DNA from: Nemertoderma westbladi
Lineage: Eukaryota > Animalia > Xenacoelomorpha
DNA length: 64,000 bases
NCBI GenBank assembly: GCA_032718475.1
Contig: JAUCBJ010006694.1
Coordinates: 1 to 64,000, forward strand
Reading direction: 5' to 3'
Shown: piece by piece, positions 1 to 59,707 of the stretch
Layout of the letters: every line of letters begins with the position of its first letter
Position numbering within the stretch: position 1 is the stretch's first letter
The notes under the pieces: model-generated
Told to the model about the DNA's origin: nothing
What the model saw: the letters and a program-made list of their open reading frames with translations, nothing else
The model's database searches: none
Program-made: the position numbers and the translations under genes

Positions 1-11
1 ATAACAGATAT
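1..11 (+). other. Atypical primer-binding site ATAACAGATAT, complementary to LTR 17232-17242
   Basis: Homologous to the position right after the 5' LTR in B1. No TGG. Exact reverse complement of ATATCTGTTAT in the copy A LTR. Confidence 0.75.
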
Positions 12-371
12 TGCTTCTGGATTGCGGTGTAAGCAATCCAGTCTAAAGTACCGGTACCGGTTGAACGGTAACCTGTACTACTGTAGGCCTGTAGGCCCAA
101 CTGCCCGAACCGGTACTTACGGTACAGGTACAGCAGTATTATTCGATTGTGGTATTGTATACCGGTGGGCTGTTTAAGAGAATAGGGATTGATCACCCCT
201 CATTCTTTTGTATAGTTTACTTATTTCTGCCAGTTTTATTTATTTGTAGGCCAGTATTGAGCAGAAGGCGTGTAAGCGTGCTCAGATTGTACAGATAACT
301 TGTAGGCTTGACTGTTGGCTGACTGTTGATTAGGTCTGAACGGATTGCAGTGCATGTAGAGTGTATGTCCA

Positions 372-3592: not shown

Positions 3593-6500
3593 ATGTCCGA
3601 TACTAAGCAGAACCTGTCAGACAGTTTATTAGATGTAACTATCTGCGACTCAGATAGAGGTGTAGAACCGTCTAGTCCTAAGTTCAGTTCACCTCCCACT
3701 GTGAGGAAGGTCATCCCTCCAGTAGTAATAACAGAACCTAGGCTAGTCCAACATCGTAGGTCTATCATAGGCACTCGAGCTCAGGTCAAGCGGGACCAAG
3801 AAGCAGCGGAACAGCAACAACCTGCGAACCAAGAACTTATTTCTCAGCGGCCCGACAGCTCCAGTAGTGAAGATACTGTAGAGCTGACACCCGAGCGCGG
3901 AGCAAGGATGACGGATGCGGTTTATTTGGATCCCCTTCTCATCCTTCCTGCAGCCGTACTCACTAGGTTATTGATCGCTGTGGAAGAACACCAGATCGAT
4001 TGGGCGAGAAATAAGCGAGCAACTAAAGATAGTTATGAGGGATACACAAGGGAAGAGCTGAAGTCTATGGTCGAGTCGCAATGGAACTTCCCCGGACCCG
4101 GACTCCCATTTGATTTATCAGAAGCTGCCTGGGAAGACATACACCGAATGGGAGTAGCCAAGGAAACCATCGATCCAGCTGTGTGGAAGAGGTCCGCAGC
4201 CGGATACGCACAGGGATTCTTCAGCTCTATGGAGCGAGTAAAAGAACAACTGTTTCAACAACCTCAAGGACCTCAAGAGCAGGGACAACTGCTTTATCAA
4301 GTTAGAGAAAGAATTCTGCGAATCAGGCTAATATTATCAGCCTTTGAAGAGGCTTCTAAAAGAAGACAAGACACGTCGTTGCAAGTTGCCGTAAAGACTT
4401 GGTTTCAACGGGTGAGTCGCCAGGTTCAAGGAACAGCTCAGTGGAAAGCTCAGCTGGAGGAGCGCTCAACTCATGGAGAATCAACAGACGCTACTTTTTC
4501 CCAAGTGGAAAGTGAAGCGACGGCAGAGAAACCACATAAGAGGGATGCCATTGACATCTATCTGTCAGACTATCAACGTTTTTTGGGAGACGAAGAGTTG
4601 AGGAGAAGGCTAGAGGGACTTAGCCCTAATAGTGAAGGAGCACAGCGTGTGCTTGACGCCATTGACGTGGATAGGTTAGCGGCGAACCAAGCTAAATGCG
4701 ATGAACAACTCCGCATCGCTAAGGTTCAAGAAGAACAAATAAAGAAAAAACGTATAGAAGACAGAAAGATAGCAGCAGTAGCAGAGGCAGAGGCAAAAGC
4801 GGCAGCGGCAGAAGCAAAAGCGGCAGCGGCAGAGGCAAAAGCGGCAGCGGTGGCGGAAGCAGAACGGAGAGCGGCTGAAGAGATCGCCCAACTAGAGTTG
4901 GAAAATCTTCAAGAGAAGTAAGACGACTTCAGTAAACAGTTAACAGCTAGTAATATGCAGATGATGAATCGATCTACTCCCAAAAGACAGGGTTATACAT
5001 CATCTGAGGAAGGCGATACCACTGATCCTGAAGGAGGAGGAAATCGATCTCGCCTAAGCAGACGTAAAAGAACATCCCACCGTCAGAAATTGCCTGATTT
5101 GCCTCCAGCTGTTAGAAGGCAACTAAATAACACCAACTTAGGTAGTACAGAACCCACAGACCATATAATTACAATAGAGAGACTCCCTACTATAGCAGAT
5201 GAGCCTGAAATAATTAGGCCTGTTCCCGAAGCCACCCTTTCGGTGGTAGAGACACCTGTACTCCATGAACCTACCTCTAAATTCCCTTTGCACAGTACCA
5301 AGTTACCTGTGCCCAGAGGAACAGCCCTTGAAACCGTGTCGGTCCTGGACTCCGAGCGAAACATAAAGGATATATCGCCCGTAGTCCCTCGTCTGCCCGC
5401 TACTACGTTGGCGGATCCCGCTTCGGCGGTTGATTGGGTGGACGAGAGACGGCGGGGGATGGACATTCTCCTCGGAAAGATGGAGGAGAATCAGGTACGC
5501 TCCTCCCAACAGGTCCGAGAGTTAGAAGGGACTGTTCAACAGTTAAAGGGAACCGTAAAGGAAAGTAGGTTAGAGTTGCAGGAAGTGCAGCAAAATATCG
5601 CGCTAGAACGTGATAAATTAGTAAATTTACAAAAGGGTATACCACCACCTCTTGTAACAATGTGTCAACCTGTTAGGTCTGAAGTATCTCATGCGCAAGG
5701 TGTGGAGCCTACACGCATCTATACTGCTAGCGAAGTAGAAACTCCTATAGTGAACCCTATTAAGGGTAATTATAGACCTGTTGATAATGATATTCCCTAT
5801 AGACCGGATCATAATCCGAGAAATTTATATACCGATAACTCGATATTAAATAACACGATGGCCCAAGAAAGTTTTACGCGTCAAATGGCTAGAACCGAAG
5901 CCCGGCAAGCGGTAAAGGTGGGAGAGATCGTCAAGTTCAATGGAGATGAGATGAAATGGTTACCTTTTAATGAATATTACAAAGATAACATACAGAACTC
6001 TGTGCTATCTAATGGAGAGAAACTTAGATTCCTCATCGAGTGCTTGGAAGGATCTCCCAAGTTAATGGCGTTAAAGTTTATTGGACATCCTGACGGATTA
6101 AGACAAGTTTGGGATACACTAAACATCAGGTATGGTAATGGGAATAACATAGCTGGTTATTTATATGCAAAGTTGGTAGCGCCCCGAAAGTTTATTAGCA
6201 GCGGAATTATAGAGTTTTCCGATGAAATTCAGGAGATCTGCAGACAATTAGATTGGCTAGGTAAGTCTCATGAGTATCAGAATGCTATGGTTATTAGAGC
6301 AGTGGCTTCTACTTTACCGAAGGGTGGAGTAGGTACACGCTGGGATAAGAAAGTGTTATATATGATGGAACAACAACGACGAGACCCTACCATGGCTGAT
6401 CTCATGTCATTCCTAGATGGAGAAGTGAAATTACAGCTCCTGAAACTGTCCAGAGAGAAGACACCGGAAAACAAGGTAAGTGAAAAACCCGTCTCTAGGA

Positions 6501-9500
6501 GAAAGGTAACACCAGTGTGTTATACAGATGATGGCGAAAGCCAGACTTCTCAAGGAGAAGATAGCGGGAAAGACACTGATAGATCTTATTACGTAAATAA
6601 AATGCCTAAAGATCAGGTAAGTAAATTCAAGTCTCGAACCCATGACAGGAGAGAACAGGTAAGAAAAACTCCTCCTATGTCTCCCAAGAGAATTCAGGTG
6701 AGAAAGCCCGAAGAAAAAACAAGTGTACACAATGTTACTCAGAGTAAGGTGAGTAACATCAAACCGAAATGTGCGCTATGTGATGGGACCCATCGCTTAA
6801 ATATGTGTGATGAATTTCTAAAGAAATCATTAACTGAGAGACGTGAAGTCATGTGGGAGAAGCGGTTGTGCTATAATTGCCTCAGACAAGGACACCAACG
6901 GCGAACCTGTTACTCTGACACAAGATGTGCCAAGTGCGGTGCGAAACATCATATCTTGTTGGACACTGAATTCGAGCGAAATAGTCCGAGTCAGGTAAGT
7001 GATTCCGAACTACATGTCCAATTCAGTGATGTGAACGACACTGATCAATCTGAGATGGAAGGATTCTATATGGACGAGTTCTCCGACGAAAACGAATCCT
7101 GTTACATGATAAATACCACAGTGTATCGAGCACTCATCTATGAAAAAGATACAGACATTGACCTCGCTCTAACCACTTCTGATCGACAACCATTTTGGAA
7201 AGCGCCAACTTCCAATGTAGGGATTAGAGAATTTCCTGTGGTACAGGTAAGGGTCCACGGACCGAAAAGGAGTTATGTAGTGAACGCCCTCCTTGACTCC
7301 GGTAGTACAGGAACATTCATCGACAAAGAGCTAGCCGAAGACATATTCGATGGACAACCCAAGTTCCGAACTAAGCTAAACATGTCAGGAATTATGCAAG
7401 TTTGGAAATCCACAGTAACAGCGGATTATTATGTAGGTGCGTTGTCCACCCCCCAGGACGAACTAGGAGAACATAGCATAAGGTCAGTGAAAATGGTGGC
7501 TATAAAGAACTTCGCTACTACTCAAGCAGACCTTTATAATTGGGACGAGGATGAGAGCATCCAACATCTTAAGATACCTCGATTCCAGACAGATTATCCT
7601 GGAGTGCAAATACTCATCGGCCAAAACGCGCATGAGGCGCTTGAGACATTAGAGAAACGGCCTGCTCAACCGCAGCCACTACAGACTTATGCGGTAAGAA
7701 CTAGAGTAGGTTGGTACTTTACTGGCCCTTCCCGTAGAACTCTCATAGAAAGATTACCGAAAGATCAAGTATATCAAGCGCGAGAATGGGAAGTTGAGAA
7801 CAGTGAGTTCGACGATCCAACTGAGGGAACTCCATACTCCTCAGACAACGACGATATACATCAACTCTTCGATGAGGAGAATGCCATCGATCTCCTTAAG
7901 GAAAGCGAGACTTGGCAAAATCAAGTGAACTTATGTCAACTCCTTCTCCCATCCGAGCGAGACGACTATAACGATGAGCTTAATGACGTCATTGAACGTT
8001 ATAATGCCAAGACTCGGGATGAACACGCCGTGAGATTCTTTACTCAAGAGGTCGTAGAGCCCAACTCCTACGATAAGGCCCTATCGGTGGAGGAAGAAAG
8101 AGCCAAGCAGATCCAAGCGACAACTACTCGTTTTCTTAAAGATCAAGGTAGGTATGAGATCGGACTTCCTTTCCGAAAGCGAGAACCAAAGTTCATTAAC
8201 AACAGACCTTTGGCAGAGAAAAGAATTGCTCAATTACATCGACGCCTTACGGCAAATTCTTCAGCTAAAGAAATGTATAAAACACAGTTGAAGAAGTTTA
8301 TTAGCAAGGGATATGCGGAGCTAGTACCGGAAGAAACCCCTATAACTGAGAGAACGTATTACTTAACTCACCATTACATTCCCAAACCCGGTAAACCCCA
8401 TGAAGTACGAGTGGTGTTTGACGGTTCCGCCCTTTATATGGGCCAATCTCTTAATTCTGAATTGTTACCCGGACCCAACTTACTCCAATCCTTGTTGGGA
8501 ATACTACTAAGGTTAAGACAATACTCCATTGCTTTCGCCTCAGATATAGAAGGCATGTTCTTACAAGTCAAAGCGCTGGATAGGGATCGAGATAGCCTAC
8601 GATTTTTGTGGTGGCCTGAAGGAGACCTCAATAAGAAACCGGTGGAGTACTGGATGACCATCCAAGCTTTTGGGATAATCTCGAGCCCTTCAAACGCCTG
8701 TTCCGTGGTGCGCACCACTGCGGATGACAACCGAGACGCCTTCTCAAAAGAAGTGATCGACAATATCAAACGAGACATCTACATGGACGATAATCTGAAG
8801 TCCCTTCCATCAGTCGAAGAAGCCATTGAGGTCGCTAAAGGAACGGTAGAATGCTTAAAAAGAGGTGGATTTCGATTAACTAAATTCACCAGCAACTCCC
8901 GTGAGTTTCTGGAGTCGATCCCGGTAGAAGATCGAGGAGCAAAAGACCTAGATCTAATAAAGGATGATCTCCCAGAAACTAAGACCCTTGGTTTGAAATG
9001 TTGCGAGTAAATCGAAATTATTCAAACCCACAGTAGATCTGTCTGTACTACATACTTCCGGAGACGAAGCTTTGGATCAGAAACCCACAGCCACAAATAA
9101 ACTCGTTGTGGAAATCCGTGATAAGGATTGGAAATCTGGTATACCTGACATCTCGCAAGGACTCTCACCTCTTCTGCAGAGAGCGATACATCACTACAGT
9201 TCTTGGAATCGGCTTTGTAAGGCCGTTACATATTTAAAGAGATGTTTTCACCATCACTACTCTGGGATGAAAACAAAGGGTGATACCGCTCCAATTACAT
9301 CAGTGCAGGTCCATGTTATTAAAGACCTCCCTAAATATAAGGTACCAGACAAGTTTCTGAAGGAGAAGATCAGTTATCAGGAGCATGAAGAAACCAACAA
9401 ACAGATGCTGAGACTCTTACAATGCTATGAAGATTCCGATAAGTATTTCCTGTTGTTGAGAAATCCACAGATGCGCTTAAGGGATCGTTTCTCTAGCACA

Positions 9501-10832
9501 ATGATAGATGGGTTGATACGTGTTGGAGGAAGGTTAACGAATGCCCCATTATCCTTTGATACTAAGTTCCCCATACTCATTAGAAATCTTGAAATACAAG
9601 TCAAGATGATTGTAGATGTTCACAGCAAACTTTATCATGCTGGTAGAGAACGAGTTCTTAGCGAAATTCGAACTCGCTATTATTTTTATAAACCCCGTAG
9701 AGCTCTGAACCAAGTTCTTAGGAACTGTATACCCTGTAGGAAAGCATTCAGTAGGCCTTTAACACAGAGAGAGGCAGAATTACCTAGGGAACGAGTAAGC
9801 TTTTATGAACCACCCTTTACTAATACCGGTGTGGATTTATTTGGCCCTATTGAAGTATATCGTGCTAGGACTATAGTCAAGAGATGGTGTGTAATCTTTG
9901 TTTGTATGACTTGTAGAGCCATCCATCTCGATATGGTGAACGATTTATCTACCAACAGCTTTCTATTAAGCTTACGACGACAGATCGCTCGCTTTGGCAC
10001 TAGTAACACGACGAGATCTGATAAGGGAACAAACTTCATTGGTGCCAACAATGAAATCAAAGCTTACGTCAAAGATTGGAACCAAAGACAGGTGGACGAC
10101 CAACTACGAGTAACAGCGTCTAGTTGGACCTTCAACGCCGCCGACGCCCCTTGGTGGGGAGGAAGTTGGGAGAGATTAATAAGAAGTGTGAAGACGGCAT
10201 TTCATTTTATAGTGCCTTGTCGCGCTTATCTCACCGACGAACTTTTGCGGACGTTAATGGAAGAAATCGCCGCCTATCTCAACGAGAGACCGCTTATGCC
10301 AGTCTCATCGAGTCCCGATTCCCTTGAAGCGCTAACACCCGCGCACTTCCTACTGAAGAAACCTGTAGCCATGCTCCCACAATCGGAAATCACAGACGGA
10401 GACGAATACTGCCGACAAACTTGGCAACTCATGCAGTTGTTATCCCGTCGTTTCGCTGACCATTTCGAAAAACATTATCTGCCCACGCTACAACTTCGAA
10501 CTAAGTGGTTTGCGCAGCAAGAAAACGTCAGCGCTGGAGACATGGTGCTTATTGTGGATGTAGATCTTCCACGTAAGCGGTGGCAGACAGGTCGTATCAT
10601 CGAGACACACATCTCGGATGACGGTTTGGTGCGATCGGTAGAACTCGTCGTCATGCAACGTAACTTCAAGAAACCGGGAATTGTCTTCGAGACGCAGCAG
10701 CTCAATCGCCCGGTGGGTCGTTTATGTTTACTGGAAAGAGACAGAGAACTCTCCGGAAACTATGGGAGACAAGATACTCTTCCCACGACCACCTCCCTAA
10801 TCCAACAAACATCTAGGGACTCCCCAACTTAA
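3593..10832 (+). pseudogene. BEL/Pao gag-pol polyprotein of copy A, disrupted
   Basis: ORFs 3593-4921 and 4955-9010 are in the same frame, split by TAA where other copies have CAA. Knuckles CALCDGTH/CYNCLRQGH/CAKCGAKHH, protease LLDSGS, RT YMDD. A deletion of about 0.84 kb at ~9000 (vs copy B2) removes RNase H and shifts frame. Integrase in 9072-10832 (HHCC, GVDLFGP, SDKGTNF, WWGGSWER). Confidence 0.92.
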
Positions 10833-12463
10833 CAACGGCTGGAGTGGGTGTGTGACCATATTACTTTATATTTGTATTAGTTTTATTTTTATATTTATGT
10901 ATGTATTATTATGTAATTTTATTTTAATCGTTTTATTTAATTTTATTTAGTAGTATGGTATTTTAGAGATTATTTAGTAGATTAGTGCAATATATATGCG
11001 CGTTTATTATTTAATTACGTATATTATATATTTAGTGCGACGGCGAGAAATATTTCTTTTTCTCTTTCCTTACTGTCTGTATTACATTATAAATACGTGA
11101 CTACAGTAAGATGAAATGTCCGTACTTATTAAAGTACAATAAAGCCACTACTATATTTAAGTATTATTGGTAGGCAGAGTATTAGGAATGCAAAGTTCAG
11201 ATCCTCGTGTCTCGGCTAAACCAAGCTCTGGGTAGACCTTGGAAACGACTTGCCTCTTCACACTGACATTGCTTCGTGCGATATTGCTCTCATACCGTAT
11301 ATTAAATAATACATATAGTAGCGTGATGTCCCTTTAACAGTAGCGTATAACGCAAAATAAATCTGTTAAACCCTTTGACCATCTGTAATTCTAGTCGATT
11401 AAGATATCGCGGCACCCACCGATATACTTGAAAGACAAATTTCTAGAATCAATGGTTAACGTCCCCAGACAAGTTCTGGAATAAACTGGTGCCCATCATA
11501 AATATTAATTATTAATATTTACAAAAATCTGTCAAATATCAGATCCTTTAACAATTCTAGTCGATTAAGATATCGTAGCACTTACCGATATTCTTAAAGG
11601 GACAAAATTCCTAGAATCAAGGATCCCAGTCCCCAGACACGTTCTGGAATAAAATTGTGTCTATTTAACATTAAATAATAAAATTTACGGGAATAAATTT
11701 AAATTCAGATATTTCAATGAATTTAATAAATTGTCATTTTATACAATTTATAACATTCCCAAAATTCCATTAATTAATAGATCATGGGAGCGGAGATTCA
11801 CTCTATTAAATGTATTTGTGTGCGAGATAGTCAATAGCCGATAAAATTCATAGAATCATGTATAAAGGGGATATTGACCATTAAAGAATTACTATTAAAT
11901 AGCATCCCAGATCTGTATGCATGAGAATTACCCTAATTCTACCGCTAGCTTTCCATAATGTCACCATGGCAACAACCACGCTAGAATTAGAAGTGAGTTA
12001 AAAGAACAATAGAAAGCATGCCCCATTGAATAGCATAGGGAATAAATAGCGCACTGCTAGTATCCAAGGATACATAATAAATACAGTGACATTCTGGAAG
12101 GTACTGACTAACGGACAAATGGCCCGAATGTGTGCAGTTTGTTGCAGTTGTGTTGAATTTGTGCGTTTGTAGGTGAATGTTACTACTAAGGTGTGTTTAC
12201 AGTAGCGAGTCGCAATTGTGAAAGTAACCCTAACTCTCCAAGAAGAACCTGCAGTACATCTAAGCCTTTGGGACGGACAGTTAAGTGACTTGTGCCGGTT
12301 ATCGTTGTCGTTGTGTAGCTACATCGTTGGCGAAAGCACAGCGACGACGGTACATCGGCGCTGAGGATCTTACACTGTCCGGGGGCAAAAGAGGGGTAGG
12401 CAGCGACGCCCGCTAGCCTAATATATATAGACTCATTATAATATTGATAAACTCATAGCAGAT

Positions 12464-15400
12464 ATGACTGAGTTGATAGAAGATGATCTTGGCATCAGGG
12501 AGCGATATACTCTACCTTTACAAGCGTTTGTCGATAGCTTGATACGCGGCGACGCTGGTCCAACTACTACGGAGGATGATGGTCGTTATATCGAACCGTC
12601 GATGTCCCCGGAGCAACTTACGCGTGAATTGGACTATAGAAAGTTCACCGCTCGCTATACGCATCGTAATGGTACGTATATGGACTTCTTAACTACCGGC
12701 CACCCTATCGATTTACACGATACGGACGATGTGGATACCGAAAGGGAAATGGTTTTATTTAAATATCATACCCAACGGAATCGGAACGATAAGCCAAGAA
12801 TAGAACACGAGAACTCTATTCGAAACCGACTCGAAAGAGAAGACGTTGAAGAACCGGATAAACGCAACGACTTCAACGATTATCTGGAATTCTTGAGAGA
12901 AACATACCTCAATATTGCCAGTCAACAAAATCTCGAAACTCGATATCCTCAAGGTATACATCATGATCCTATGATAGAACTCAAACGACTCTATTTCACT
13001 ATGATGTATCTTACCGCCGATCGACCGCTACCTGTTGTCCCAGATAGCTTCGAACAGATGGAGGAATATTGTAAAACTGGAGAACGATCACCCGCGTTTC
13101 CTCTGCAGGACATGCGTCTTTGGTATTACTGTGACGAATGCCCTAGACCCAATCAGCAAACGGAAAGACATAAACATCCGCGGAGACGTTGCGCTAAACA
13201 CAGTTTTACACGATATACTTACGGGAGTTTCGAGCGAAACCTGTTCGACGTGTCCCCTGCGGTCGCTCGACTCAAGCGATCCTTGAACGAACCGATGATC
13301 AGAGTTCCGGAATACTCGGTCAGACCTCCGCATTCCTCGGTTAGACCTCAAACTCTTGACCCTAATAGTATCACGGATCCTCCCGAACTGTACTCACTGT
13401 TCAAAGATCTAGTGTTACCCGAACAGTTGATCGGTGGCACTCCGGTAGTAGTCTCACGAGACATTCGCCAACCCTACCTAGCTGGACTGGGACGTGGTCA
13501 TCTAATATCGCCGTTTAACCCATACAACCGTCCCGGCTTCACCTCTATCCAACCCGTTACGGAAGTCGAAGAGAGCGTTGTACGAAACGCATTAGACGCT
13601 ATTCGGCAGAAAATCGGAAAGGGAACGTACGATTGTTTGGAGAAGCGTAAATTGCAGCAACAAGTCCAAGCGGTGAAGGAATTAGCTTTACCCCAGTTCG
13701 ATAGAGAAATACAAAATCTCGAGGAGGACATCGAACGTGGACGAACCTACTCTTTACAAGAGTTTCTAGATGAGCGTCTACAACAACAAGCAGAGGAGAA
13801 TCAGCTCGAGGAGAGACATATAGAACTGGATGAGAGAGAAGAAGCGGCTTTAGCTCAACCCGAAGCGCAAATCCTTATGACGGATCTCTACTCTAAAACC
13901 ATTCTTCATCCCTCGATGGTTCCCCATTTCGGAGACAAACTTTTTGCGACGGCACAACCCCAACCGGTTGATATCAACCTAAGATCTCGCGATCTTATCG
14001 CCGACGCTCCTCTGTTGCAGCGTCCGCCCATCGAACCCGCCCGTGTCGATGGTATACTCGTTGAACCTCCGGACAATAGAGCAGATCTTGTCCGTCGCAT
14101 GGTACACGATGTAAACATACGCGCTAGACCTTTACCGGACTCGTTTTATGGGATCAAAGATCACCCTTATTACGTCAATCTAAAACAATATTACATGGTA
14201 AAACCGGAAGATCCTACACATAGTCTGAAGTTTCTACCGTTAATAAATCCTCTCGATCTTGTCGAACTCGAACAACTGCAGAAACATCTGGATCAGTTAG
14301 TTAAAGTAAACTCGTTTCGAAAACCATATAATGTTTCCAGAATAGAGAAAGAAACAATACCTCCGTATAATCTTGATGGATTCATCAAAACTCGTTTAGT
14401 GCACTGGAATCTTGATGTGTTATTCGAGGAGGAAAGAATACAACGATATGGAGATGTGGAAACATATACCACACAATGTTTAAAGTATAAAGACCTGCCT
14501 AATGCTAGCGAATGTGCTACCTTGTGGCATCCTGTGGGAATGACACTCGAAAACGCCACTAAAGAGTGGAACGAAACTCTTAACGTTATCGAGATGTATG
14601 GAGTTGTCACTTACGATAACGAAGGTAGCGTTCCGGTTGGAGAACTTGGAACTACGCGGATGATACACATACGAGGACTCGCTGGTTCTACCCACGTATT
14701 TACTCGAGCGTGTTCCGACGTTATTGATTATTCTTTTGAAACTCTTACTGAGATACAAAAGAAACTCCGACATGGACAATTTGAACTCGCGCAGCTTTAC
14801 GTCACCGACACCGAGCGCAAGCCGGCCATGGGTATCGATGGATCGATGTTACCCCAACCCGTGCTCGAGATGCTGTTTAATGAAGGAATCCTTAAAATCG
14901 GCTCAGCTGTTTATGGAGACCTACAGAACGACTTTCGGAATATGGAGAACATTCCATACCCCTTCGTTGATACTCAGCTGATTGCTCCTTGGGCAGAAGG
15001 CCGAGGTTTCTTCCGCACTACGTATGCCAATACACCCAGCGGAATTACCAAAGTACAACGAACCTCCATCGGACATCTTGCCTTTCAAGAATACGGATGG
15101 AATTTCAAGGTTGGAAATCCTATAAATTACCAACAAGTATACGGAGATCATTATTCTCGTTTATACTTTGATGGACCATTGACCGCAACTGGCGCCGTGT
15201 ATAGCTTTATGAGTGTTCCACTTCGTCCCTCCTTAGCTATATACACGATCTTTGAAAACGCAGCACTTGCCGGTTGGCTAGCCGATGTGTGCAGCCGTAC
15301 CATACGCGCCCATCCCTTAATACTTGGAACCAAACTCGCCAAGTTAGATGAACACAATAAATTCATCCGCTTTGAATGTTTCAGGCGCTTTCTGACTCCG

Positions 15401-16717
15401 TTCCGTAACGTTGATAGTCAGTTCAAGGACCGCGCTCTGACCAAACTCAGCCTGAGAGACTCAGCGGCGGAGAAGCTAAATAGCGCGGGATTTGCCCTTT
15501 TTCAGGACGTTTGTATACAGAACTTGCACTCATCTGTTATACAAAGACCCCGAATACCCACGGGTTATTCTGTCGTCGAAGTTCAGACAGTGGGTCCGCT
15601 TGCGGAGACAGCCGCACCTACCTCAGCTATGCAATTGGAAGACGAACCAATATGCTTAGAAGCTGAAGCGATTCAGCCTACAGCGCCCCGGAGCAGCGAT
15701 AACGACTACGTCTTAGAGTGGTATCAAGGTCCACAATGTCTCACCGCATACGATTATCGACACGCTAACTATGTTTCTCGAAAACGTTGTCGATTATGCG
15801 CATCGAGAGACCATTTCACCCCTATGGACTCAGACGTACCCTGTTCCTATTTCCACGAACAACCAATGATGGAGATATATTGTGCGTATTGCAGACTTAA
15901 TAACTCTCATATTTTTGCAGTCTGCCCCCAATTTATGACTCAATGCCACCACTGTCAATTTAAAGGACATGCGAGTTATAATTGCCCCTTTAATCACGAT
16001 TTAGAGAGTGTAGATGAAATGATTACCCTGCGCTACATCCGAGCTTGGGAAGCTAACGCGGATTTACACTGTGAGTCCCGCCATCGATACTACCCTGGAC
16101 GCTCTTACGAGGGAGTTTACGCGTTCCATCCTTATTTATTAGCGTCTGTGGAACAAAAAACACGCATACCGAGTTACGAGCTAATGAAGCGTGTTGGTGA
16201 GTGTATTTCCACTAAATTTGTTAGAAGATACCTTAGGAACGTCAATCCTAACGATATTACTTCATACCATTTGATCAATTATATCCGTCAAGACCCTGAG
16301 TATGGCGATTTATTTATCAACTCGCACCCTGAGTTACAGGAAGTATCTCGACGGCCCTACGAATATCGAGCCCGAGAACGCGAGCTGGAAAGAACTATTA
16401 AACCAAGGAAGTTTCTCACCACTCACGGTCCGCCTACCGCCATTGCCCAGACAACCCGTCAAGGACCCGTAGGAGCTGCTGTCCTGAGGCGCGCCCTAAA
16501 GGCTGTTAGACCTCGCTCCACGGAAGTTGATATCGATCAACCAGGTATCTCGACCGGCGGATACACCGATCGCAATCCGAAACCTTCTGATGCAATTGTA
16601 TTGCACCCTTCACCCAGGAGTTACAGCCCTCCTAGTAAAGTGGCTCGCCCCAAAGAGAAAAGGACTCTTGCTAGCCTCAAAAAACTGCGTAAACGCCGTC
16701 CGCGTAAGAAAGACTAA
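12464..16717 (+). CDS. Extra ORF2 of the BEL/Pao element (1417 aa): putative DEDDy (WRN/EXD/RNase D-like) 3'-5' exonuclease, CCHC zinc knuckles, basic C-terminus; not env-like
   Basis: Uninterrupted 4.25-kb ORF between pol and PPT. ExoI-like VVTYDNE (D718/E720), ExoII-like LPQPVLEMLFNEGILKIGSAVYGD (D819), FVDTQ, ExoIII-like YTIFE (Y927/E931). Knuckles at C1109-C1174. KKLRKRRPRKKD terminus. No obvious signal peptide or TM segment. Confidence 0.75.
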   Translation: MTELIEDDLGIRERYTLPLQAFVDSLIRGDAGPTTTEDDGRYIEPSMSPEQLTRELDYRKFTARYTHRNGTYMDFLTTGHPIDLHDTDDVDTEREMVLFKYHTQRNRNDKPRIEHENSIRNRLEREDVEEPDKRNDFNDYLEFLRETYLNIASQQNLETRYPQGIHHDPMIELKRLYFTMMYLTADRPLPVVPDSFEQMEEYCKTGERSPAFPLQDMRLWYYCDECPRPNQQTERHKHPRRRCAKHSFTRYTYGSFERNLFDVSPAVARLKRSLNEPMIRVPEYSVRPPHSSVRPQTLDPNSITDPPELYSLFKDLVLPEQLIGGTPVVVSRDIRQPYLAGLGRGHLISPFNPYNRPGFTSIQPVTEVEESVVRNALDAIRQKIGKGTYDCLEKRKLQQQVQAVKELALPQFDREIQNLEEDIERGRTYSLQEFLDERLQQQAEENQLEERHIELDEREEAALAQPEAQILMTDLYSKTILHPSMVPHFGDKLFATAQPQPVDINLRSRDLIADAPLLQRPPIEPARVDGILVEPPDNRADLVRRMVHDVNIRARPLPDSFYGIKDHPYYVNLKQYYMVKPEDPTHSLKFLPLINPLDLVELEQLQKHLDQLVKVNSFRKPYNVSRIEKETIPPYNLDGFIKTRLVHWNLDVLFEEERIQRYGDVETYTTQCLKYKDLPNASECATLWHPVGMTLENATKEWNETLNVIEMYGVVTYDNEGSVPVGELGTTRMIHIRGLAGSTHVFTRACSDVIDYSFETLTEIQKKLRHGQFELAQLYVTDTERKPAMGIDGSMLPQPVLEMLFNEGILKIGSAVYGDLQNDFRNMENIPYPFVDTQLIAPWAEGRGFFRTTYANTPSGITKVQRTSIGHLAFQEYGWNFKVGNPINYQQVYGDHYSRLYFDGPLTATGAVYSFMSVPLRPSLAIYTIFENAALAGWLADVCSRTIRAHPLILGTKLAKLDEHNKFIRFECFRRFLTPFRNVDSQFKDRALTKLSLRDSAAEKLNSAGFALFQDVCIQNLHSSVIQRPRIPTGYSVVEVQTVGPLAETAAPTSAMQLEDEPICLEAEAIQPTAPRSSDNDYVLEWYQGPQCLTAYDYRHANYVSRKRCRLCASRDHFTPMDSDVPCSYFHEQPMMEIYCAYCRLNNSHIFAVCPQFMTQCHHCQFKGHASYNCPFNHDLESVDEMITLRYIRAWEANADLHCESRHRYYPGRSYEGVYAFHPYLLASVEQKTRIPSYELMKRVGECISTKFVRRYLRNVNPNDITSYHLINYIRQDPEYGDLFINSHPELQEVSRRPYEYRARERELERTIKPRKFLTTHGPPTAIAQTTRQGPVGAAVLRRALKAVRPRSTEVDIDQPGISTGGYTDRNPKPSDAIVLHPSPRSYSPPSKVARPKEKRTLASLKKLRKRRPRKKD

Positions 16718-16787
16718 CTGTTTAGAGTATTTTTATATTTTAGAAACTGAGATTTGTTATATTTTGTAGACTTAAATCCCATTTTCT

Positions 16788-16795
16788 GGGAGCGG
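16788..16795 (+). other. Short polypurine tract GGGAGCGG before the 3' LTR
   Basis: Directly abuts TGTAAAAG; the same motif abuts the 3' LTRs of B1 (38605-38612) and B2. Confidence 0.75.
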
Positions 16796-17962
16796 TGTAA
16801 AAGCTTTTGCGTCATTAACCGGTTATTTTCCCTTAAAGTACTCTGTAGTTGGTTTACCAGGCATAAAAAGGCCGTGTCCTTGCTGTACTGGTGTTTTAGA
16901 GGACATAAAAGTCATTTCCTCTGTATTTGTACTTTAGAGGACATAATCCGCAATCTCGTGACGCGATAAGCTGGATACTCTTGAAAACAGTGTCGCTACC
17001 ATGACGACGGCTAACAGCTGATATTGCCACGTCGACGTTTCTTCGTTTCTTTGTTCTCTCGTTGTTCGGTTGACCAATCAGAGCGTTTTTTGTCTCTGTG
17101 TTGGAGGTGTGTACAGAACTCAGTAGTTCAGTGTGTTATGTTTTTGCCCAGAGCCTAAGAACATCGGCTTTTGGCACCTCCGTATATCAGCATTCTTTAG
17201 CTTTACATTAGTAGGCTTAATTATAGAGCGTATATCTGTTATCAAACCAAATCATACCAAAACTCAGTTAACTCACTTAATAATCATTCATACCTTAACT
17301 TTGCTGCTTTTACTGTCGGTTATTCATTATATTGGTTGATGAAATATTATATCGGAATACTGATCAATAGTCAGACACCCCACCTTCTTGATATACTAAA
17401 GGTTAGAGAGACCGGTTACAGATAAACGATTGCGACCTATGTTAAGTGGTTTGCAGTGAATCTAATGCTATTTCATATGCCCAACATAAATTGTCTGTTG
17501 CTCTCTTTATACGTGACTAAATTTAGTGAAGGTCGGCAGATTAGTGTGCAGTATTGTGCAGCATTGTGTATGCGTGTAACTGATAACAAAGCATCTCCTA
17601 AAGAATGCGCCATATACGTGAATCTATAGCCTTTTCGTTGTGTCCAGTTTAAGTCATAACTCTGTTTACATATTTAGAGCGCCACGTCCTAAAGGAACTG
17701 TTAATATTTCCCGAAAGTGAATAATATTTGTCAGAGATTATATATTACGATCAGTCGAATAATACGGTAGGCTTACACCATCAATCATTAAGCTCCGAAC
17801 TCAGTCTCCCGGGTATATCCAACGGGTGAATGATTGCGCATAGACTGGCTTCGGCTAATGTAGTGTATCAAATACTCGTCATAGGCTAAAGACTATCTAT
17901 CATCCAAAAGACATTCTAATTTTGGCAGGTTAAACTGTCAAAGGTCTTCAAAAGCGCAAACA
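16796..17962 (+). repeat. 3' LTR of copy A (1167 bp)
   Basis: TG...CA termini. Homologous to B LTRs (CCAATCAGAGCG box, GGTCTTCAAAAGCGC end). Similarity stops at CA. Confidence 0.9.
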
Positions 17963-18284
17963 CTATATTTCGTATGCCTTCACTCTTGTATGTGGTAAGC
18001 TCAGTAGCTCTTGCTGGAGGTAGAGTTGTCATATACAGTATATGGGTAGTAACCAAGCATCTTGATTACACAACTTCAGTGCTTTTACAGTAAATTGCGT
18101 ATCCCATTACACGAGTCTTTATTACATTGATAACGTGAACTCCCAGTTTTTATCTTTCGTGGTTTTGTATTAGTTCTGTAACCACAGATCTTCTGTTTCA
18201 GTAATTTTTGGAAAATATATGGGTTCCATATATATATATATGATTATCCACGCATTTGGAAGGGCAGTTTGTATTGCTGGCGTA

Positions 18285-19584: not shown

Positions 19585-19903
19585 AGTCCAGTAGTCTGGT
19601 AGTGTAGCGTGTAGCGGTGTAGCTCTTTCTGTCTTTAGAAGTTTGCAGAGTGCAGCAGGCAGCAAGGCAGGTCTGCAGCCTGCAGGTAGTCTGTAGTCTG
19701 GCATCTGACAGTCTGGGTACCCAATAGGCTGATAGCCATAACCATATGCCATAGCCATACACATACACCCATAGGTCTAACATCACCTTACTGTCCTGTT
19801 GCTGTATTGAGCAGTTGAGGGATCAGGACTGTAGGACATTGCTTAGCTGCCTAGGCCTATTTCAGTATTTACAGACTGACAGACTTAAGTTTGAAATTGA
19901 AAG

Positions 19904-22775: not shown

Positions 22776-22821
22776 AGTAGACAGTCACTTCCTCTGTAAT
22801 CTCTTTGTTTTTCCTTCATAG

Positions 22822-37255: not shown

Positions 37256-38534
37256 ATGACGGAGTTGATAGAAGATGATCTTGGTATCAGGGAGCGATAT
37301 ACTCTACCTTTACAAGCATTTGTGGATAGCTTGATACGCGGTGAAACCGATCCAACCATTACGGAGGACGATGGTCGTTATATCGAACTGCCGACGTCCC
37401 AAGAGCAACTTATGCGTGAATTGGACTATCGAAAATTCACCGCTCGCTATACGCATCGTAATAATACGTATATGGACCTCCTAACTACCGGCCATCCTAT
37501 CGATTTACATGATACGGACGATGTAGACACCGAAAGGGAAATGGTTCTATTTAAATATCATACCCAGCGGCGTCGTAACGATAAATCGAGAATAGATCAC
37601 GAAAATTCTATTCGTAACAGACTGGGAAGACGAACCAATATGCCTAGAATCTGAGGAGATTCAGCCTATCGCGCTCGGAACAGCGACAACGATTACATCC
37701 TGGAATGGTATCAAGGTCCACTGCGTACGATTATCGCCATGACAACTGTGTTTCTCGGCAACGTTGTCGGTTATGCGCATCGAGAGACCATGTTACGCCC
37801 ATGGACACAGACGTCCGCTGTTCCTATTTCCACGAACAACCGGCGATGGAAATTTATTGCGCGTATTGCAGATTTAATGATTTGCACGTTTTTGCGGTTT
37901 GCCCTCAATTTGTGACTCAATGTCACCATTGTCAACTGGGGGGACACGCCAGTTTCGATTGCCCTTTTAATCGCAATTTGGAGGGCGTGGATGAAATGAT
38001 CACACTACGTTACATTAGAGCTTGGGAAGCGAAGGCTGATTTACATCGTGATTCGCGCCATCGCTATTATCCTGGACGCGCTTACGAAGGAATTTATGCG
38101 TTCCATTCTTATCTATTCGCTTCTGTCGAACAGAAATCACGCATATCGAGTTACAGGAAGTATATCGACGGCCTTACGAGTACAGAGCCCGCAAATGCGA
38201 GTTGGAAAGAACCATTAAACCAAGGAAGTTTCTAACTGCCTATGGTCCACCCACGGCCCTCGTTCAGACCACTCGTAAAGGACCCGTAAGAGCGGCTGTC
38301 TTGAAACGAGCTCTCAAAGCCGTTAGACCCCTCTCACCTGACGTTGATGTCAATCAACCCGGTACTTCGACTGGCGGATACACCGACCATAATCCTACAC
38401 CCTCTGATGCAATCATATTGCACCCTTCACCCAGGAGTTATAGCCCTCCTTGTAAAGTGGCTCGCCCCAAAGAGAAAGGGACTCTGGCTAGCTTTAAAAA
38501 ACTGCGTAAACGCCGTCCGCGCAAGAAAGACTAA
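37256..38534 (+). pseudogene. ORF2 remnant of B1 (exonuclease region deleted)
   Basis: N-terminal ~123 codons joined out of frame to the zinc-knuckle C-terminus, with further small deletions. Confidence 0.9.
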
Positions 38535-39870: not shown

Positions 39871-40459
39871 ATAACAGTCATACGCTCTATAATTTAAGCC
39901 TACTAATGTTTCTTCTAAAAGTATGAAATGAATTGACTCTAGAGCCGTTGTTTCTGGCCTAGACAGCAATAACAACAAAGTATCAAGAAAAAACAGTAAG
40001 ACTGAACACTCTCCCTATGATCGACCGAAAAGCTACACGTCGACAGGAAAAATCGCTCTGATTGGTTCAAGCCAAACAAAGAACCATGCGTCCAATGGCT
40101 GTTTCCATGTCAGCAACCAGCTGTTAGATGTCGTAATATGAATCATCACGGCTAAGCTATGAAAGGTATTTGTCGCATTGCAGGTTTTTTGTCTTACCAT
40201 GTCCGCTAAAACACGTATATAGCAGAATGACTTTTATGTCCGTTAAAACACCTGTAACGGTACCTTGAGGGCGAGGGGAATATTTATACAGTTAGAGAAC
40301 CTTTTTAGAGTATTCCAGCGCCTGGGGGGAAACTGGATTGCGAAGCAAAGGGGCCAGTTATATCCCACAGAAGCTTTTACACCGCTCCCAGAAAATGGGA
40401 TTTGAGTCTATAAAATATACAAAATCACAGTTTCTAATATACGTAAATACTCTAAACAG

Positions 40460-41908
40460 TTAGTCTTTCTTGCGCGGACGGCGTTTACGCAGTTTTTTAA
40501 AGCTAGCAAGAGTCCTTTTCTCTTTGGAGCGAGCCACTTTACAAGGAGGGCTATAACTCCTGGGTGAAGGGTGCAATATGATTGCATCAGAGGGTGTAGG
40601 ATTATGGTCGGTGTATCCGCCAGTCGAAGTACCGGGTTGATTGACATCAACGTCAGGTGAGAGGGGTCTAACGGCTTTGAGAGCTCGTTTCAAGACAGCC
40701 GCTCTTACGGGTCCTTTACGAGTGGTCTGAACGAGGGCCGTGGGTGGACCATAGGCAGTTAGAAACTTCCGGGGTTTAATGGTCCTTTCCAACTCGCGTT
40801 CGCGGGCTCGGTATTCGTAAGGCCTTCGATGTACTTCCTGCAACTCGGGATGTGAGTTAACAAACAAGTCTCCATAGTCCGGATCCTGACGGATATAATT
40901 GATTAAGTTATAGGAATGAAGGTCGCTAGGATTAACACTCCTGAGAAATTTGCGTACGAATTTAGTTGAAATACATTCTCCGACGCGCTTCAGTAGCTCG
41001 TAACTCGATATGCGTGATTTCTGTTCAACAGAAGCGAATAGATAAGGATGGAACGCATAAACTCCTTCGTAAGCGCGTCCGGGATAATAGCGATGGCGCG
41101 AATCACAATGTAAATCAGCGTTCGCTTCCCAAGCTCTGATGTAACGTAGTGTGATCATTTCATCTACGCTTTCCAAATCGTGATTAAAAGGGCAATCGAA
41201 ACTGGCGTGTCCCTTTAGTTGACAATGGTGACATTGAGTCATAAATTGAGGGCAAACCGCAAAAACGTGCAAATTATTAAATCTGCAATACGCGCAATAA
41301 ATTTCCATCGCCGGTTGTTCGTGGAAATAGGAACAGCGGACGTTTGTGTCCATGGGCGTAACATGGTCTCTCGATGCGCATAACCGACAACGTTGCCGAG
41401 AAACATAGTTGGCATGGCGATAATTGTACGCAGTGAGACACTGTGGACCTTGATACCATTCTAGGATATAATCGTTGTCGCTGTTCCGGGCGCGATAGGC
41501 TGAATCTCCTCAGATTCTAGGCATATTGGTTCGTCTTCCCAGTCTGTTACGAATAGAATTTTCGTGATCTATTTTCGGTTTATCGTTACGACTCCGCTGG
41601 GTATGATATTTAAATAGAACCATTTCCCTTTCGGTGTCTACATCGTCCGTATCATGTAAATCGATAGGATGGCCGGTAGTTAGGAAGTCCATATACGTAC
41701 CATTACGATGCGTATAGCGAGCGGTGAATTTTCGATAGTCCAATTCACGCGCAAGTTGCTCTTGGGACATCGGCGGTTCGATATAACGACCATCGTCCTC
41801 CGTAATGGTTGGATCGGCTTCACCGCGTATTAAGCTATCCACAAATGCTTGTAAAGGTAGAGTATATCGCTCCCTAATACCAAGATCATCTTCTATTAAC
41901 TCCGTCAT
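40460..41908 (-). pseudogene. ORF2 remnant of B2 (same exonuclease deletion; zinc-knuckle C-terminal frame still open)
   Basis: ORFs 41510-41908 and 40460-41353 match the ORF2 N- and C-termini. Confidence 0.9.
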
Positions 41909-45073: not shown

Positions 45074-48000
45074 TCACGTTAGGGAGTCCCTAGATGTTTG
45101 AGGAATTAGGGAGGTGGTCGTGGGAAGAGTGTCTTGCCTTCCATAGTTTCCAGAGAGTTCCCTGTCTCTTTCCAGTAAACATAAACGACCAACTGGGCGA
45201 TTGAGTTGTTGCGTCTCAAAGATGATGCCTGGTTTCTTGAAGTTACGCCGCATGACGATGAGTTCTACTGAGCGTACTAAACCATCATCTGAAATGTGTG
45301 TCTCGATGATACGACCTGTCTGCCACCGTTTACGTGGGAGGTCTGGATCTACAATAAGCACCATATCTCCGGCGCTGACGTTTTCTTGCTGCGCAAACCA
45401 CTTAGTTCGAAGTTGTAGCGTGGGCAGATAATGTTTCTCGAAATGGTCAGCGAAACGACGGGATAGCAACTGCATAAGTTGCCAAGTTCGATGGCAGTAT
45501 TCGTCTCCGTCGGCAATCTCCGATCGTGGGAGCATGGCTACGGGTTTCTTCAGTAGGAAGTGCGCGGGTGTTAGCGCTTCCAGGGAATTGGGACTCGATG
45601 AGACTGGCATAAGCGGTCTCTCGTTGAGATAGGCAGCGATTTCCTCCATTAACGTCCGCAAAAGTTCGTCGGTGAGATACGCGCGGCATGGCACTATAAA
45701 GTGAAATGCGGTTTTGACACTTCGAATTAATCTCTCCCAACTTCCTCCCCACCAAGGGGCGTCGGCAGCGTTGAAGGTCCAGCTAGACGCTGTTATCCTT
45801 AGCTGGTCGTCCACCTGTGTTTGGTTCCAGTCCTTCACGTAAGCCTGTATCTCGTTGTTGGCACCTATGAAGTTCGTTCCTTTATCCGATCTCATGGTAT
45901 TACTTGTCCCGAAGCGAGCGATCTGTCGTCGTAAACTTAAGACGAAGCTGTTAGTAGATAGATCGTTCACCATATCGAGATGGATGGCTCTACAAGTCAT
46001 GCACACGAAAATGACACACCATCTCTTGACTATAGTCCTCGCACGATATACTTCAATAGGGCCAAATAAATCTACACCAGTATTAGTAAAAGGTGGTTCA
46101 TAGAAGCTTACTCGTTCCCTAGGTAATTCTGCCTCTCGCTGTGTTAAAGGCCTACTGAATGCTTTCCTACAGGGTATGCAGTTCCTAAGAACTTGGTTCA
46201 GAGCTCTACGGGGTTTATCAAAATAATAGCGAGTTCGAATTTCGCTAAGAATTCGTTCTCTACCAGCATGGTAAAGTTTACCGTGAACGTCTACAATCAT
46301 CTTGATTTGTACTTCAAGATTTCTAATAAGTATGGGGAATTTGGTGTCAAAGGATAAGGGCGCGTTGGTGAGTCTTCCTCCAACACGTATTAACCCATCT
46401 ATCATTGTGCTCGAGAATCGATCCCTTAAGCGCATCTGTGGATTTCTCAACAACAGGAAGTACTTTTCGGAATCCTCATAGCATTGCAGGAGTCTCAGTA
46501 TCTGTTTATTTGTTTCTTCATACTCCTGGTGACTAATTTTCTCTTTTAGAAAATGATCAGATATCTTATATTTGGGTAAATTCTTAATAACATGAACTTG
46601 TGCAGATGTCAATGGAGCGTGATCACTAATGGTCTTCGTCCTGGAGTAGTGATGATGAAAACATCGTCTTAAATATGTGACGGCTTTACAGAGCCGATTC
46701 CAGGAACTGTAATGATGCATTGCTCTCTGCAGCATGGGTGAGATTCCTTGCGAGACGTCTGGTATTCCAGATTTCCAATCTCTATCTCTAATTTCCACAA
46801 CAGACTTATTTGTGTTGAGGGATTGTGGATCCGAAACATCATTCCCGGAAGTGTGTAATACTGATAGATCGATAGTCGGTTTAAATAACTTCGATTTACT
46901 CGCCCGGGTTTTAGGTTTGACGGTCTCCGCTCCCTTGGCTTGTCTAATCTCTGCCGTAGTAAGGTGAGGAGGCCATTCATCCTCTTCCTTGCTCAGGAAG
47001 TCGGGTCCACCCAACCAATCTGGAGTATCTATCAGTTCCTGTGGAGTTGCTCCCCTGGAGGCGATATCGGCTGGATTAATCGTACCAGGGCAATGTCTCC
47101 ATTGATCTATCTTTGTGCGACTAAGAATAATAGCTACTCGGTTAGTAACAAAAACGCTAAACTGACAGACTTCATTGGTGAGATACTCCAACACGAGTAA
47201 AGCGTCGGTCCAATAAACCGTTTTCTCCAGTGGATAGTCGATTTGTTCCGTTACGTTCCGGCCGATGGCTGTAGCGTATAAAGCCGCCTTTAACTCCGCT
47301 CGAGGAACCTTTAACTTGTTGTTAATCAATGCCTTAGAGGTAACCAAGGCGACCTTGATTCCATCCGGAGTTTCGACTCGCAGATATGCTACTATACCTA
47401 TTCCCATATCGCTGGCGTCTCCAAACACATGGAGTTGATAAGAATACTTAGGAAGAACATGGCCAAAATATGCATGGGAAATTATAAAGTTCTCGATGGC
47501 AGGTAGAGAATCTTCCCATTTCATCCATTTCTTCAACAATTCTCCCTTAAGCGGATCGTCCCATGAGTGGTTTTCAAGCCACATCTGTTGTACTAAACTC
47601 CGAGCAATCAATATAACTGGGCTAATAAATCCCAATGGGTCGAAATAAGTGCTCAGGATACTTAAACAAATCCGTTTGGTCCGAACTGGATTATCTCGCT
47701 GTTTCAACTGAAAAAACAGGATGTCTCTTTCAGTGTCCCACTTCAAGCCTAGCGTCTTGGTTTCAGGAAGATCGTCCTTTATTAAGTCTAGATCTTTCGC
47801 TCCGCGGTCTTCTACCGGTATCGCTTCCAGAAACTCACGGGAGTTGCTAGTGAATTTCGTCAGTCGAAATCCACCTCTTTTCAAACACTCTACCGTTCCT
47901 TTCGCGACAGCTATGGCTTCTTCTACTGATGGAAGGGACCTTAAATTGTCGTCCATGTATATATTGCGTTTTATGTTGTCTATCACTTCTTTGGAGAAGG

Positions 48001-48335
48001 AGTCTCGGTTATCATTCGCAGTGGTTCGCACCACGGAGCAGGCGTTGGAAGGGCTTGATATGATCCCAAAAGCCTGGATGGTCATCCAGTACTCTACCGG
48101 TTTCTGGTTGAGGTCTCCTTCAGGCCACCACAGAAATCTCAGGCTATCTCTATCTCTATCCAGCGCCTTGACTTGTAAGAACATTCCTTCTATATCAGAG
48201 GCGAACGCGATGGAATATTGTCTTAATCTTAATAGTATTCCCAACAAAGATTGGAGTAAGTTGGGTCCTGGTAACAACTCGGAATTGAGGGATTGGCCCA
48301 TATATAGAGCAGAGCCATCAAATACGACTCGTACT
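45074..48335 (-). CDS. Open RT-RNase H-integrase portion of BEL/Pao pol (B2), 5'-truncated
   Basis: YMDD; Pao RNase H motifs VFGDAS, PRAEL, YWTD, NPADIASRG; full integrase. The only copy here with complete RNase H. Confidence 0.9.
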
Positions 48336-49519
48336 ATAGTGCAAGGGAGTCACTGAAGGCCCTCGTGTCTAGCGAACCATGAATCAACATGGTGCCGTGG
48401 TACCGTCTAGTTGGCCTGTTGCCGTACTGCCAGTCCTGTACACAGTAGGGGTGGTGGCATGGCGTGATTTGTGGTTTATGTGGTCTATGTGGTAGGTCTA
48501 TGTGTGGTATGTATGAGTTGACCAGACTCTTTACTGTCTCCAATCGGTTGCCAAAACGTGTCTTTTCCCAGGGTAGCACTATTGGAATGGAGGTGTTGCA
48601 TCGGAATGGACAGGTTCCTGATGATTCTGTTGGTACTACTATTGGAATGGAGGTGGCACCCGGAATATCGGCTGCAAGGAGGGGTTAGTGTTGTAGTGTG
48701 GTCCGAGTGAATGATACTCTGGAATCTGTGGTTTGTGTGTGTACGTGGTATACGTGAGTGTATGTATGGCCACTGCGAGTGGGTATGGGAACCCTTACCG
48801 GTTGGTTCAGTCGCCGCTGGTTATTAGTAGGACCATATTTTACTGCGCCTCAGCATACTTTGTGCACACAAAGTTATTTTACCCTGTCGGTAAAATAAAG
48901 TACTCTCGACTTTTTATTAGTCGATACAATTTTGACCCCTCTTATTTTGTCACCGATTTTGTCTTCCCCGATTATGTCCTCTGTGTGTGCGTGGTATGCG
49001 TCAGATTTTGTGTTTACCGTAGTGTACTTAATATTGTGAACATCTATTGAGTACACGTGTACAGTGACTGGTAAGTGGTTACTTGTTCCTAGCTTTCGAG
49101 CTAGTCAGTATTGTTTGCGGAACCGACTTCCCCTCAATACTGCCGGCGAGGCGGGTGAAAACGGTCAATATTCCATGTGGGTAGCGCAAGCCCGCTTGGG
49201 ACAAGACCGTCGGTTTGGCTCAAGGGCGACCTTGATGCTCGATCGCTATCGACTGGTCCACCCGCCGGTTGACTCTCTGAGTTGGCTCAATGTACAGTCA
49301 GGCCACAGTAAGTTGACAGTAGCCGACCATCTGGCTACACCGACGAGCTGTGCCGGTGTGATCGGGGGATTGAAAAGTGAACCCGGGAAGCATCGGGCTA
49401 CCCTCCGGCCCAGTCTGATCGGAGTCGGACTGGCCCCAAGGGTGGTGGGACAGCGTCCGCCTCATGGGTGCGCCTCGGAGTCATCAGAGAGGAGCCCAGA
49501 AGGACGCAAGCGAGGTCTC

Positions 49520-59697: not shown

Positions 59698-59707
59698 AGG
59701 CCATCCA

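Follow-up and report, generated by a model that had tools for sequence, protein, structure and literature searches.

Third open reading frames (ORF3) encoding RNase D-like proteins are described, in the accessible text of PMC5408684, for the long terminal repeat (LTR) retrotransposons Juno1/2 and Vesta2/5 of bdelloid rotifers, which bears out the precedent given in an earlier note on the DNA studied here; such frames also occur in the Athena/Terminon retroelements (PMC5408684, PMC6431247 and PMC6338049, each as excerpted). Tf1/sushi, Tcn1 and TAR elements are known or expected to prime their own reverse transcription (accessible part of PMC6317226); in Tf1, the RNA's first 11 bases anneal to the primer site, and RNase H excises the primer (excerpts of PMC7175516 and PMC4600332). 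Belpaoviridae/Semotivirus elements are profiled as 4–10 kb long, with an 18-nt primer site for transfer RNA (tRNA)-Arg/Gly and env as the sole third gene (PMC8742986), and the third genes of BEL/Pao elements named in print are envelopes (PMC8742986, and PMC3118150 and PMC13524379 in their accessible parts). In the 64,000-nt stretch of Nemertoderma westbladi DNA analysed here (contig JAUCBJ010006694.1 of assembly GCA_032718475.1, positions 1 to 64,000, forward strand; hereafter the window), a high-copy BEL/Pao-type element carries an ORF3 between integrase and its 3′ LTR. Judged from its sequence, this is an accessory, non-envelope gene, and we tentatively predict a protein in which zinc knuckles would guide an RNase D-like exonuclease that trims the 3′ ends of primer or complementary DNA (cDNA) in a tRNA-free pathway, a reading that we consider possible.

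ORF3 and its RNase D-like region

Self-comparison of the window gave four related stretches: copy A (1–17962, + strand, with its 5′ LTR outside the window), copy B (27985–39870, +), copy C (39871–48335, inverted on the − strand) and copy D (about 49500–60505, +). Copy A diverges from the other three by 12–17%; because B, C and D are mutually 93–98% alike and sit in a single rearranged cluster, the window holds two lineages and not four independent copies. ORF3 (12464..16717, +) lies between the end of integrase at 10832 and the polypurine tract (PPT) and 3′ LTR of copy A, where it is open over 1417 codons from ATG to stop, as the earlier note had read it. It is whole only in this copy. The same note had taken it to be homologous in all four copies, which does not hold: B, C and D align only to residues 1–125 and ~1059–1414.

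Within ORF3, residues ~700–945 (14561..15298, +) very probably contain a DEDDy-like domain, with the candidate residues D718, E720, D819, Y927 and E931 at the positions first assigned to them. The likeness to RNase D is supported by four weak yet agreeing sequence tests and by one distant homologue of the same layout. In Atlas, residues 670–1000 matched an unnamed cluster at the top, followed by PF01612 clusters as hits 2 and 3 (score 0.92), and 25 of the 30 matches fall in the PF01612 set. The NCBIfam RNase D model TIGR01388 matched residues ~798–843 with E=0.015. Aligned with hhalign to a profile of 72 PF01612 domains from bacterial genomes, with 60 shuffles per query as the null, residues 690–960 scored 28 (P=1e-3; shuffle maximum 18.7), the homologue P0002 alone scored 38, with its DxE on the family DTE, and the two together scored 42 (P=7e-6; shuffle maximum 21.2). 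Scores above 18 were reached by two of 13 ORF3 windows, exactly those containing residues 797–846; the significant match is the ExoII–DTQ core, in which D819 aligns to the ExoII aspartate of RNase D. Among four bacterial subgroups compared, a set without host EXD1, EXD2 and Mut-7, RNase D was best (pair score 40.9).

P0002 (648 residues, ENA, on a 9.4-kb contig) is the single homologue for residues 600–1060 among 1.84 billion representatives (E=1.2e-4), and was alone among 7989 candidates in word-based homologue searches that otherwise returned 0 of 3186 and 0 of 1142. Its nuclease region is 30% identical over 150 residues and carries DxE, the ExoII aspartate, DTQ and YxxxE; D718/E720 correspond to its D62/E64, which aligns with the family DTE. 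It is shorter than ORF3, being without the N-terminal 650 residues, and also has three knuckles, outside the region used as query. Atlas reads it as PF01612 plus zf-CCHC (0.86), and its knuckles match retroviral nucleocapsids in a PDB search.

The flanking motifs are less regular. The ExoI register varies in MAFFT with the ends supplied, and as ExoIII departs from the canonical YxxxD we call the region DEDDy-like and not a canonical member. Low-confidence secondary structure places a strand end at D718 and a helix over Y927–E931, and makes the rival ExoI register (described below) a helix. A fold search with the first low-confidence model gave nothing at E<=0.001 (best Z 6.1, a helical bundle) and is uninformative either way. 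A likeness to HRDC domains seen by eye is not supported: compared with 26 HRDC regions of RNase D, residues 931–1050 reached a score of 11, which shuffles also attain (maximum 18.7).

Following the nuclease region are three zinc knuckles (residues 1109–1174; 15788..15985, +) with the patterns CX2CX4HX9C (1109–1127), CX2CX5HX4C (1140–1154) and CX2CX4HX4C (1161–1174), whose 12 ligands are all retained in B, C and D; the earlier note had read three CCHC-type knuckles here. Pfam zf-CCHC_3 matches the isolated knuckles with E=2.5e-4, below the family cut-off. Nearer the N terminus, the Cys/His cluster of the earlier note is present at residues 223–246 (13130..13201, +). Of the other features it listed, the end resembling a nuclear localisation signal stands as a basic C terminus, and the coiled coil (~395–465) is seen by eye only. 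ORF3 has no membrane segment by hydropathy (best 19-residue Kyte–Doolittle mean 1.19), which, with the basic C terminus, rules out an envelope, in keeping with the non-env nature first assigned to it. A PDB sequence search with ORF3 gave nothing significant, and with the two-sequence profile RNase D took one of six rows (E=1.7). The plasmid search gave no match, the phage search E values of 5–8 only, and PHROGs weak matches only; a locus search of metagenome, viral and prokaryote contigs gave no relative.

Copies B, C and D all lack the segment equivalent to 12833–15636 of A (2.8 kb, residues ~124–1058), with an identical joint, and their ORF3 reads into a stop at codon 133. Lost with this segment are the Cys/His cluster, the coiled-coil stretch and the whole nuclease region; it is not an intron, as its ends read GA..TT. 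The remnants lie at 37256..38495 (+, with further breaks) in B, 40499..41908 (−) in C and 58264..59700 (+) in D. In a survey of contigs from four public runs aligned to copy A, the same joint (12832 to 15637) recurs in two, X4 and X5, so the ORF3-deleted form is a subfamily; another internal deletion (~2.76 kb, 13825–16583), in contigs of X1 and X2, shows that such subfamilies arose more than once. Contigs of all four runs cover each of the 30 bins of 2800–18200. Over the deleted part they are ~17% diverged from A and gapless (96 differences and 0 gaps in 14168–14728, which includes D718/E720; 142 and 0 in 13291–14092), against 15 gaps per 220 nt in a spacer piece taken for comparison, which suggests that other lineages retain the ORF3 reading frame across this part.

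Selection was assessed as the ratio of nonsynonymous to synonymous rates (dN/dS, Nei–Gojobori) of copy A against B, C and D, with integrase (0.088) and reverse transcriptase (RT; 0.019) as controls. Residues 1–123 gave 0.136, 0.064 and 0.075, respectively, and residues 1076–1414 gave 0.069–0.090 (P<1e-8 for both); in the knuckle region the ratio is 0.049 over 86 codons, which confirms the A-versus-B synonymous excess first noticed there. The ORF3 ends common to all copies are under strong purifying selection. As this equals that on integrase, ORF3 is not a neutral passenger. The purifying selection suggested in the earlier note holds at the two ends of ORF3 (dN/dS 0.06–0.14), a comparison that does not include the nuclease part, present only once in the window. 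Among 40 listed of about 3,700 public-run differences, 15 fall within ORF3 and nine of these are synonymous.

Separately, the C-terminal remnants of C and D, 3′ of the deletion (40499–41488, −, and 58684–59673), are open over ~350 codons and differ at 15 synonymous and eight other sites (dN/dS 0.15, P=9e-6); the same remnant looks neutral between B and D (0.54–0.59). The constraint between C and D may reflect recombination with intact lineages or a knuckle-only product in use.

The host element and its primer site

Serving as the basis of the BEL/Pao assignment is the open RT–RNase H–integrase frame of copy C (45074..48349, −, 1091 residues), with Peptidase_A17 (E=9e-35), DUF5641 and Integrase_H2C2 domains; copies A, B and D have DUF1759 and protease domains. 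The order protease–RT–RNase H–integrase and the Pao-type domains support a BEL/Pao type by Pol, and the identity given by the earlier note is borne out by Peptidase_A17, DUF1759 and DUF5641. This Pol rules out a Ty3/gypsy (chromovirus) Pol as in the Tf1/sushi group, and we file the element as a Pol-defined BEL/Pao variant, not a textbook semotivirus. Copy A itself is defective: its gag-pol (3593..10832, +) is broken, with an in-frame stop in gag at 4919–4921 and ~0.84 kb missing near 9000, in the Peptidase_A17/RNase H region, with a change of frame.

A complete element would measure ~18 kb. The 3′ LTR of copy A (16796..17962, +, 1167 bp, TG...CA) is abutted at U3 by a PPT region (16780..16795, +) identical in A and B; the 5′ LTR of B (27985–29242, +) has 1258 bp, and the two LTRs of B are identical at 1242 of 1258 positions. 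No target-site duplication could be paired for the element copies in the window. Between pol and ORF3 of copy A is a 1.6-kb non-coding spacer (10833..12463, +), and immediately upstream of the ORF3 ATG is AGCAG/AT, conserved in all four copies and a candidate splice acceptor.

At the edge of the LTR there is no tRNA-type TGG; the first lies at nt 18 in A, and B has none within 30 nt. Instead, the 11 nt at the primer-binding position of A (1..11, +) form the complement of 17232..17242 (+) of its own LTR, the candidate self-primer, and those of B (29243–29253, +) are the reverse complement of 28486–28496 in its own LTR, the place with which the LTR site of A aligns. Complementarity to the own LTR is 11 of 11 in both copies and 7–8 in cross-tests: two neighbouring positions of the 11 set A apart from B and are changed at both sites, in LTRs that are 81% alike. 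Predicted duplexes have −10.5 and −12.4 kcal/mol for own pairs versus −6.2 and −5.8 kcal/mol for cross pairs. From composition, an 11-nt match is expected by chance about 0.001 times per copy, and other leader 11-mers with a complement in their own LTR number 1 of 1688 and 2 of 1696. A stable hairpin (12..50, +; z −2.9 in A and −5.7 in B), in which paired changes separate the two copies, comes right after the primer site and keeps it free of pairing. Neither the window nor 1–40000 yielded a tRNA gene or an Rfam match.

The inversion joint between B and C (39871..39881, +) falls on the same pair of sequences. Here the 3′ LTR of B is followed by the exact 11-nt primer-site sequence and then by inverted C, which reads back from its own LTR 11-mer. 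Such a product should arise when a 3′ end at the site is extended on its partner; alternatively, the 11-bp inverted match may have hosted an ordinary DNA rearrangement, and the joint does not discriminate between the two priming modes considered below. Taken together, the 11/11 self-complementarity, the change in step in two lineages and the joint on the pair argue that this element, which has no tRNA primer site, probably primes its own reverse transcription.

In the LTR, the 11-mer lies 720–750 nt before the end; a conserved TATAGAG precedes it by 10 nt, and it is closely followed by an initiator-like TCA(GTC), which B and D match and A matches only as TCA (consensus from the accessible part of PMC3601003). 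The 11-mer would thus be at the end of U3 and hence only near the RNA 3′ end, although this spacing argument is weak.

Possible roles of ORF3

In the proposed pathway, the 11-mer in the element RNA would pair with the site after U5 and be extended by RT. In the mode of Tf1, with the 11-mer as the RNA 5′ end, RNase H would make its cut in the loop, and the exonuclease would then remove bases as far as the duplex; in a 3′-end mode, with the 11-mer just upstream of the start site, it would have to be laid bare by 3′–5′ trimming. In either mode, plus-strand DNA extending beyond the 11 nt would require trimming. The knuckles would bind RNA, and, with a protein that acts in trans, the deleted lineage of B, C and D could spread. 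One form of the 3′-end mode, in which the exonuclease chews back the poly(A) tail and R to expose the U3 primer and the B/C joint is a fossil untrimmed intermediate, is very unlikely. Among the three functions proposed in the earlier note, primer or RNA-end processing gains from the self-complementary, non-tRNA site, and cDNA proofreading found no support.

A number of observations weigh against the trimming proposal. The case for connecting the ORF3 protein with the primer is indirect. The nuclease and self-priming may be unlinked, since Tf1 self-primes with RNase H alone (as far as the excerpt of PMC7175516 goes), and the accessible text on the rotifer nuclease-bearing elements makes no self-priming claim (PMC5408684). 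When 868 nt of B are folded at equilibrium (ViennaRNA), the long-range 11-bp pairing has probability 0 and the 11-mer sits in a local hairpin instead. That position 1 of copy A directly abuts an LTR is inferred from its alignment with the leader of B. The basic C-terminal tail hints at entry of the protein into the nucleus, while reverse transcription normally takes place in the cytoplasm. As to the domain, the ExoI match at D718/E720 is equalled by 634 of 2000 shuffles and requires a ~35-residue insertion, the RNase D profile favours another ExoI register (residues ~743–795) without an aspartate, and ExoIII is YxxxE in both ORF3 and P0002, with glutamate for aspartate (72 of 2000 shuffles, P about 0.04). 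Atlas feature counts of 152–160 fall below the 170 mark for close kin, and a Pfam scan of the whole protein returned nothing, nuclease region included. AlphaFold2, run twice as a check of the exonuclease fold, gave no usable structure (pLDDT 33 and 28) and did not confirm it. Purifying selection is demonstrated for the ORF3 ends only, not for the nuclease region; of the listed public-run differences, nine fall in the deleted part and three of these are synonymous; most of the nine recur in almost every contig and hence seem private to copy A. What stands of the DEDDy-like exonuclease first proposed is therefore the ExoII–DTQ core and the P0002 layout; ExoI and ExoIII follow from pattern and one homologue, with scores that are not significant.

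ORF3 might instead be an active RNase D-like exonuclease directed against host silencing (PIWI-interacting RNAs, small interfering RNAs or their precursors) or surplus cDNA, with self-priming unrelated. This we regard as somewhat unlikely, though it draws on the same domain evidence from Atlas, TIGR01388 and hhalign, and the DEDDy relatives Mut-7 and EXD1 work in small-RNA pathways (accessible text of PMC5408684). For P0002, Atlas places an EXD1-like cluster second (0.77), action in trans agrees with the spread of deleted copies, and the large unassigned regions, coiled-coil-like stretch and basic tail would suit a regulatory protein; the presence of a nuclease and an unusual primer site in one element is left unexplained.

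That the domain is active seems somewhat more likely than not. A DEDDy fold that is catalytically dead or weak, in an ORF3 serving as an RNA-binding scaffold or transport adaptor for the element RNA, is unlikely. It would then resemble EXD1, Maelstrom or Egalitarian. The rival ExoI register without an aspartate, the non-significant ExoI and the glutamate of ExoIII fit such a protein, as do the ~80% of ORF3 outside the domain and the strongly conserved knuckles (dN/dS 0.05). Against it, each of the four positions is still acidic in P0002, which shares the helix–strand–DxE and H-x3-L-x-G pattern, and the predicted strand end at D718, the helix over Y927–E931 and the helical rival ExoI, all of low confidence, favour the catalytic register.

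That the nuclease likeness is a short motif or chance, and ORF3 another accessory such as an envelope substitute or captured host gene, would fit the missing Pfam and PDB sequence matches, the weakness of every single score and the low-confidence folds, but is very unlikely, because four methods converge on one family and one stretch of 50 residues, shuffles fall short, there is no membrane segment and selection equals that on integrase.

Neighbouring sequences and relation to known elements

Between copies A and B is an ADAR2-like host gene (19901–23811) with few long exons, encoding two dsrm domains and A_deamin (E=1e-86). The leader of copy A, longer than 2 kb even without a ~1.39-kb insertion at 1740–3131, contains ACCGGT palindromes, conserved hairpins and tandem units of 287 and 130 bp, and the pol–ORF3 spacer has two units of ~165 bp; these repeats and hairpins (45–120, 293–864, 3200–3460 and 11387–11688) are candidate dimerisation, packaging or promoter signals. 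The insertion has TTAA at both ends and terminal and internal inverted repeats, and is presumably a piggyBac-like non-autonomous element. Between C and D, at 48380–48405, CA stands before TGGTGCCGTG; this is the tRNA-type primer site of another LTR element, which we take to be of tRNA-His type. Pieces of non-LTR elements lie at 42260–43905 (RT, inside the spacer of copy C), 24948–27013 (RT at 25952, repeated at 62831–64000 with 97% identity), 61027–64000 (a PHD-finger ORF at 61613) and 18174–18809 (a DUF6451-like ORF immediately after the LTR of A).

Each of the two features is known separately, from the rotifer gypsy-like ORF3 and from Tf1, and neither was found in print for BEL/Pao. A search mostly by title and abstract, with Repbase reports, subscription journals and supplements outside it, gave no published BEL/Pao case of a nuclease ORF3 or of self-priming, the earlier note likewise knew of no BEL/Pao case with this ORF3 architecture, and PMC3118150 contains neither the word 'exonuclease' nor 'primer'. 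As far as found, nuclease ORF3s in print come from rotifer gypsy-like elements only, with function not shown. Departures from the tRNA-primed Belpaoviridae and from an env third gene are found here together in one genome, and the 11-bp primer duplex would offer a concrete substrate for such a nuclease. If the link between nuclease and primer is true, reverse transcription would be started here in a new way; if it is false, nuclease capture and self-priming still extend to a further LTR-element family.

Like the rotifer genes, the ORF3 described here stands in the place of env as a third ORF of its own and is RNase D-like, with an altered acidic motif, no transmembrane segment and an activity that is predicted in both. 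Unlike them, it has 1417 residues, three knuckles, a Cys/His cluster and a coiled-coil-like stretch, and its element is BEL/Pao by Pol, whereas the rotifer hosts are gypsy-like; its altered fourth acid (YxxxE) differs from the rotifer motif DEED, the rotifer proteins being compared by their description in the accessible text. As in Tf1/Tf2/Tj1, Tf1/sushi and the plant elements Tcn1 and TAR, there is no tRNA site and the 11 nt after the LTR match the element's own LTR, but those elements, as excerpted, are Ty3/gypsy or Ty1/copia. The Tf1 primer is the first 11 nt of the RNA and its mechanism, in the accessible descriptions, involves no accessory nuclease; here the 11-mer lies well inside the LTR, between TATA-like and initiator-like motifs, and ORF3 is present. 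With Belpaoviridae/Semotivirus (PMC8742986, and PMC3118150 in its accessible part) the element shares LTRs, the order gag–protease–RT–RNase H–integrase, a PPT and Pao-specific Pfam domains, and it differs from them in its length of ~18 kb, in having no tRNA site and in its non-env ORF3.

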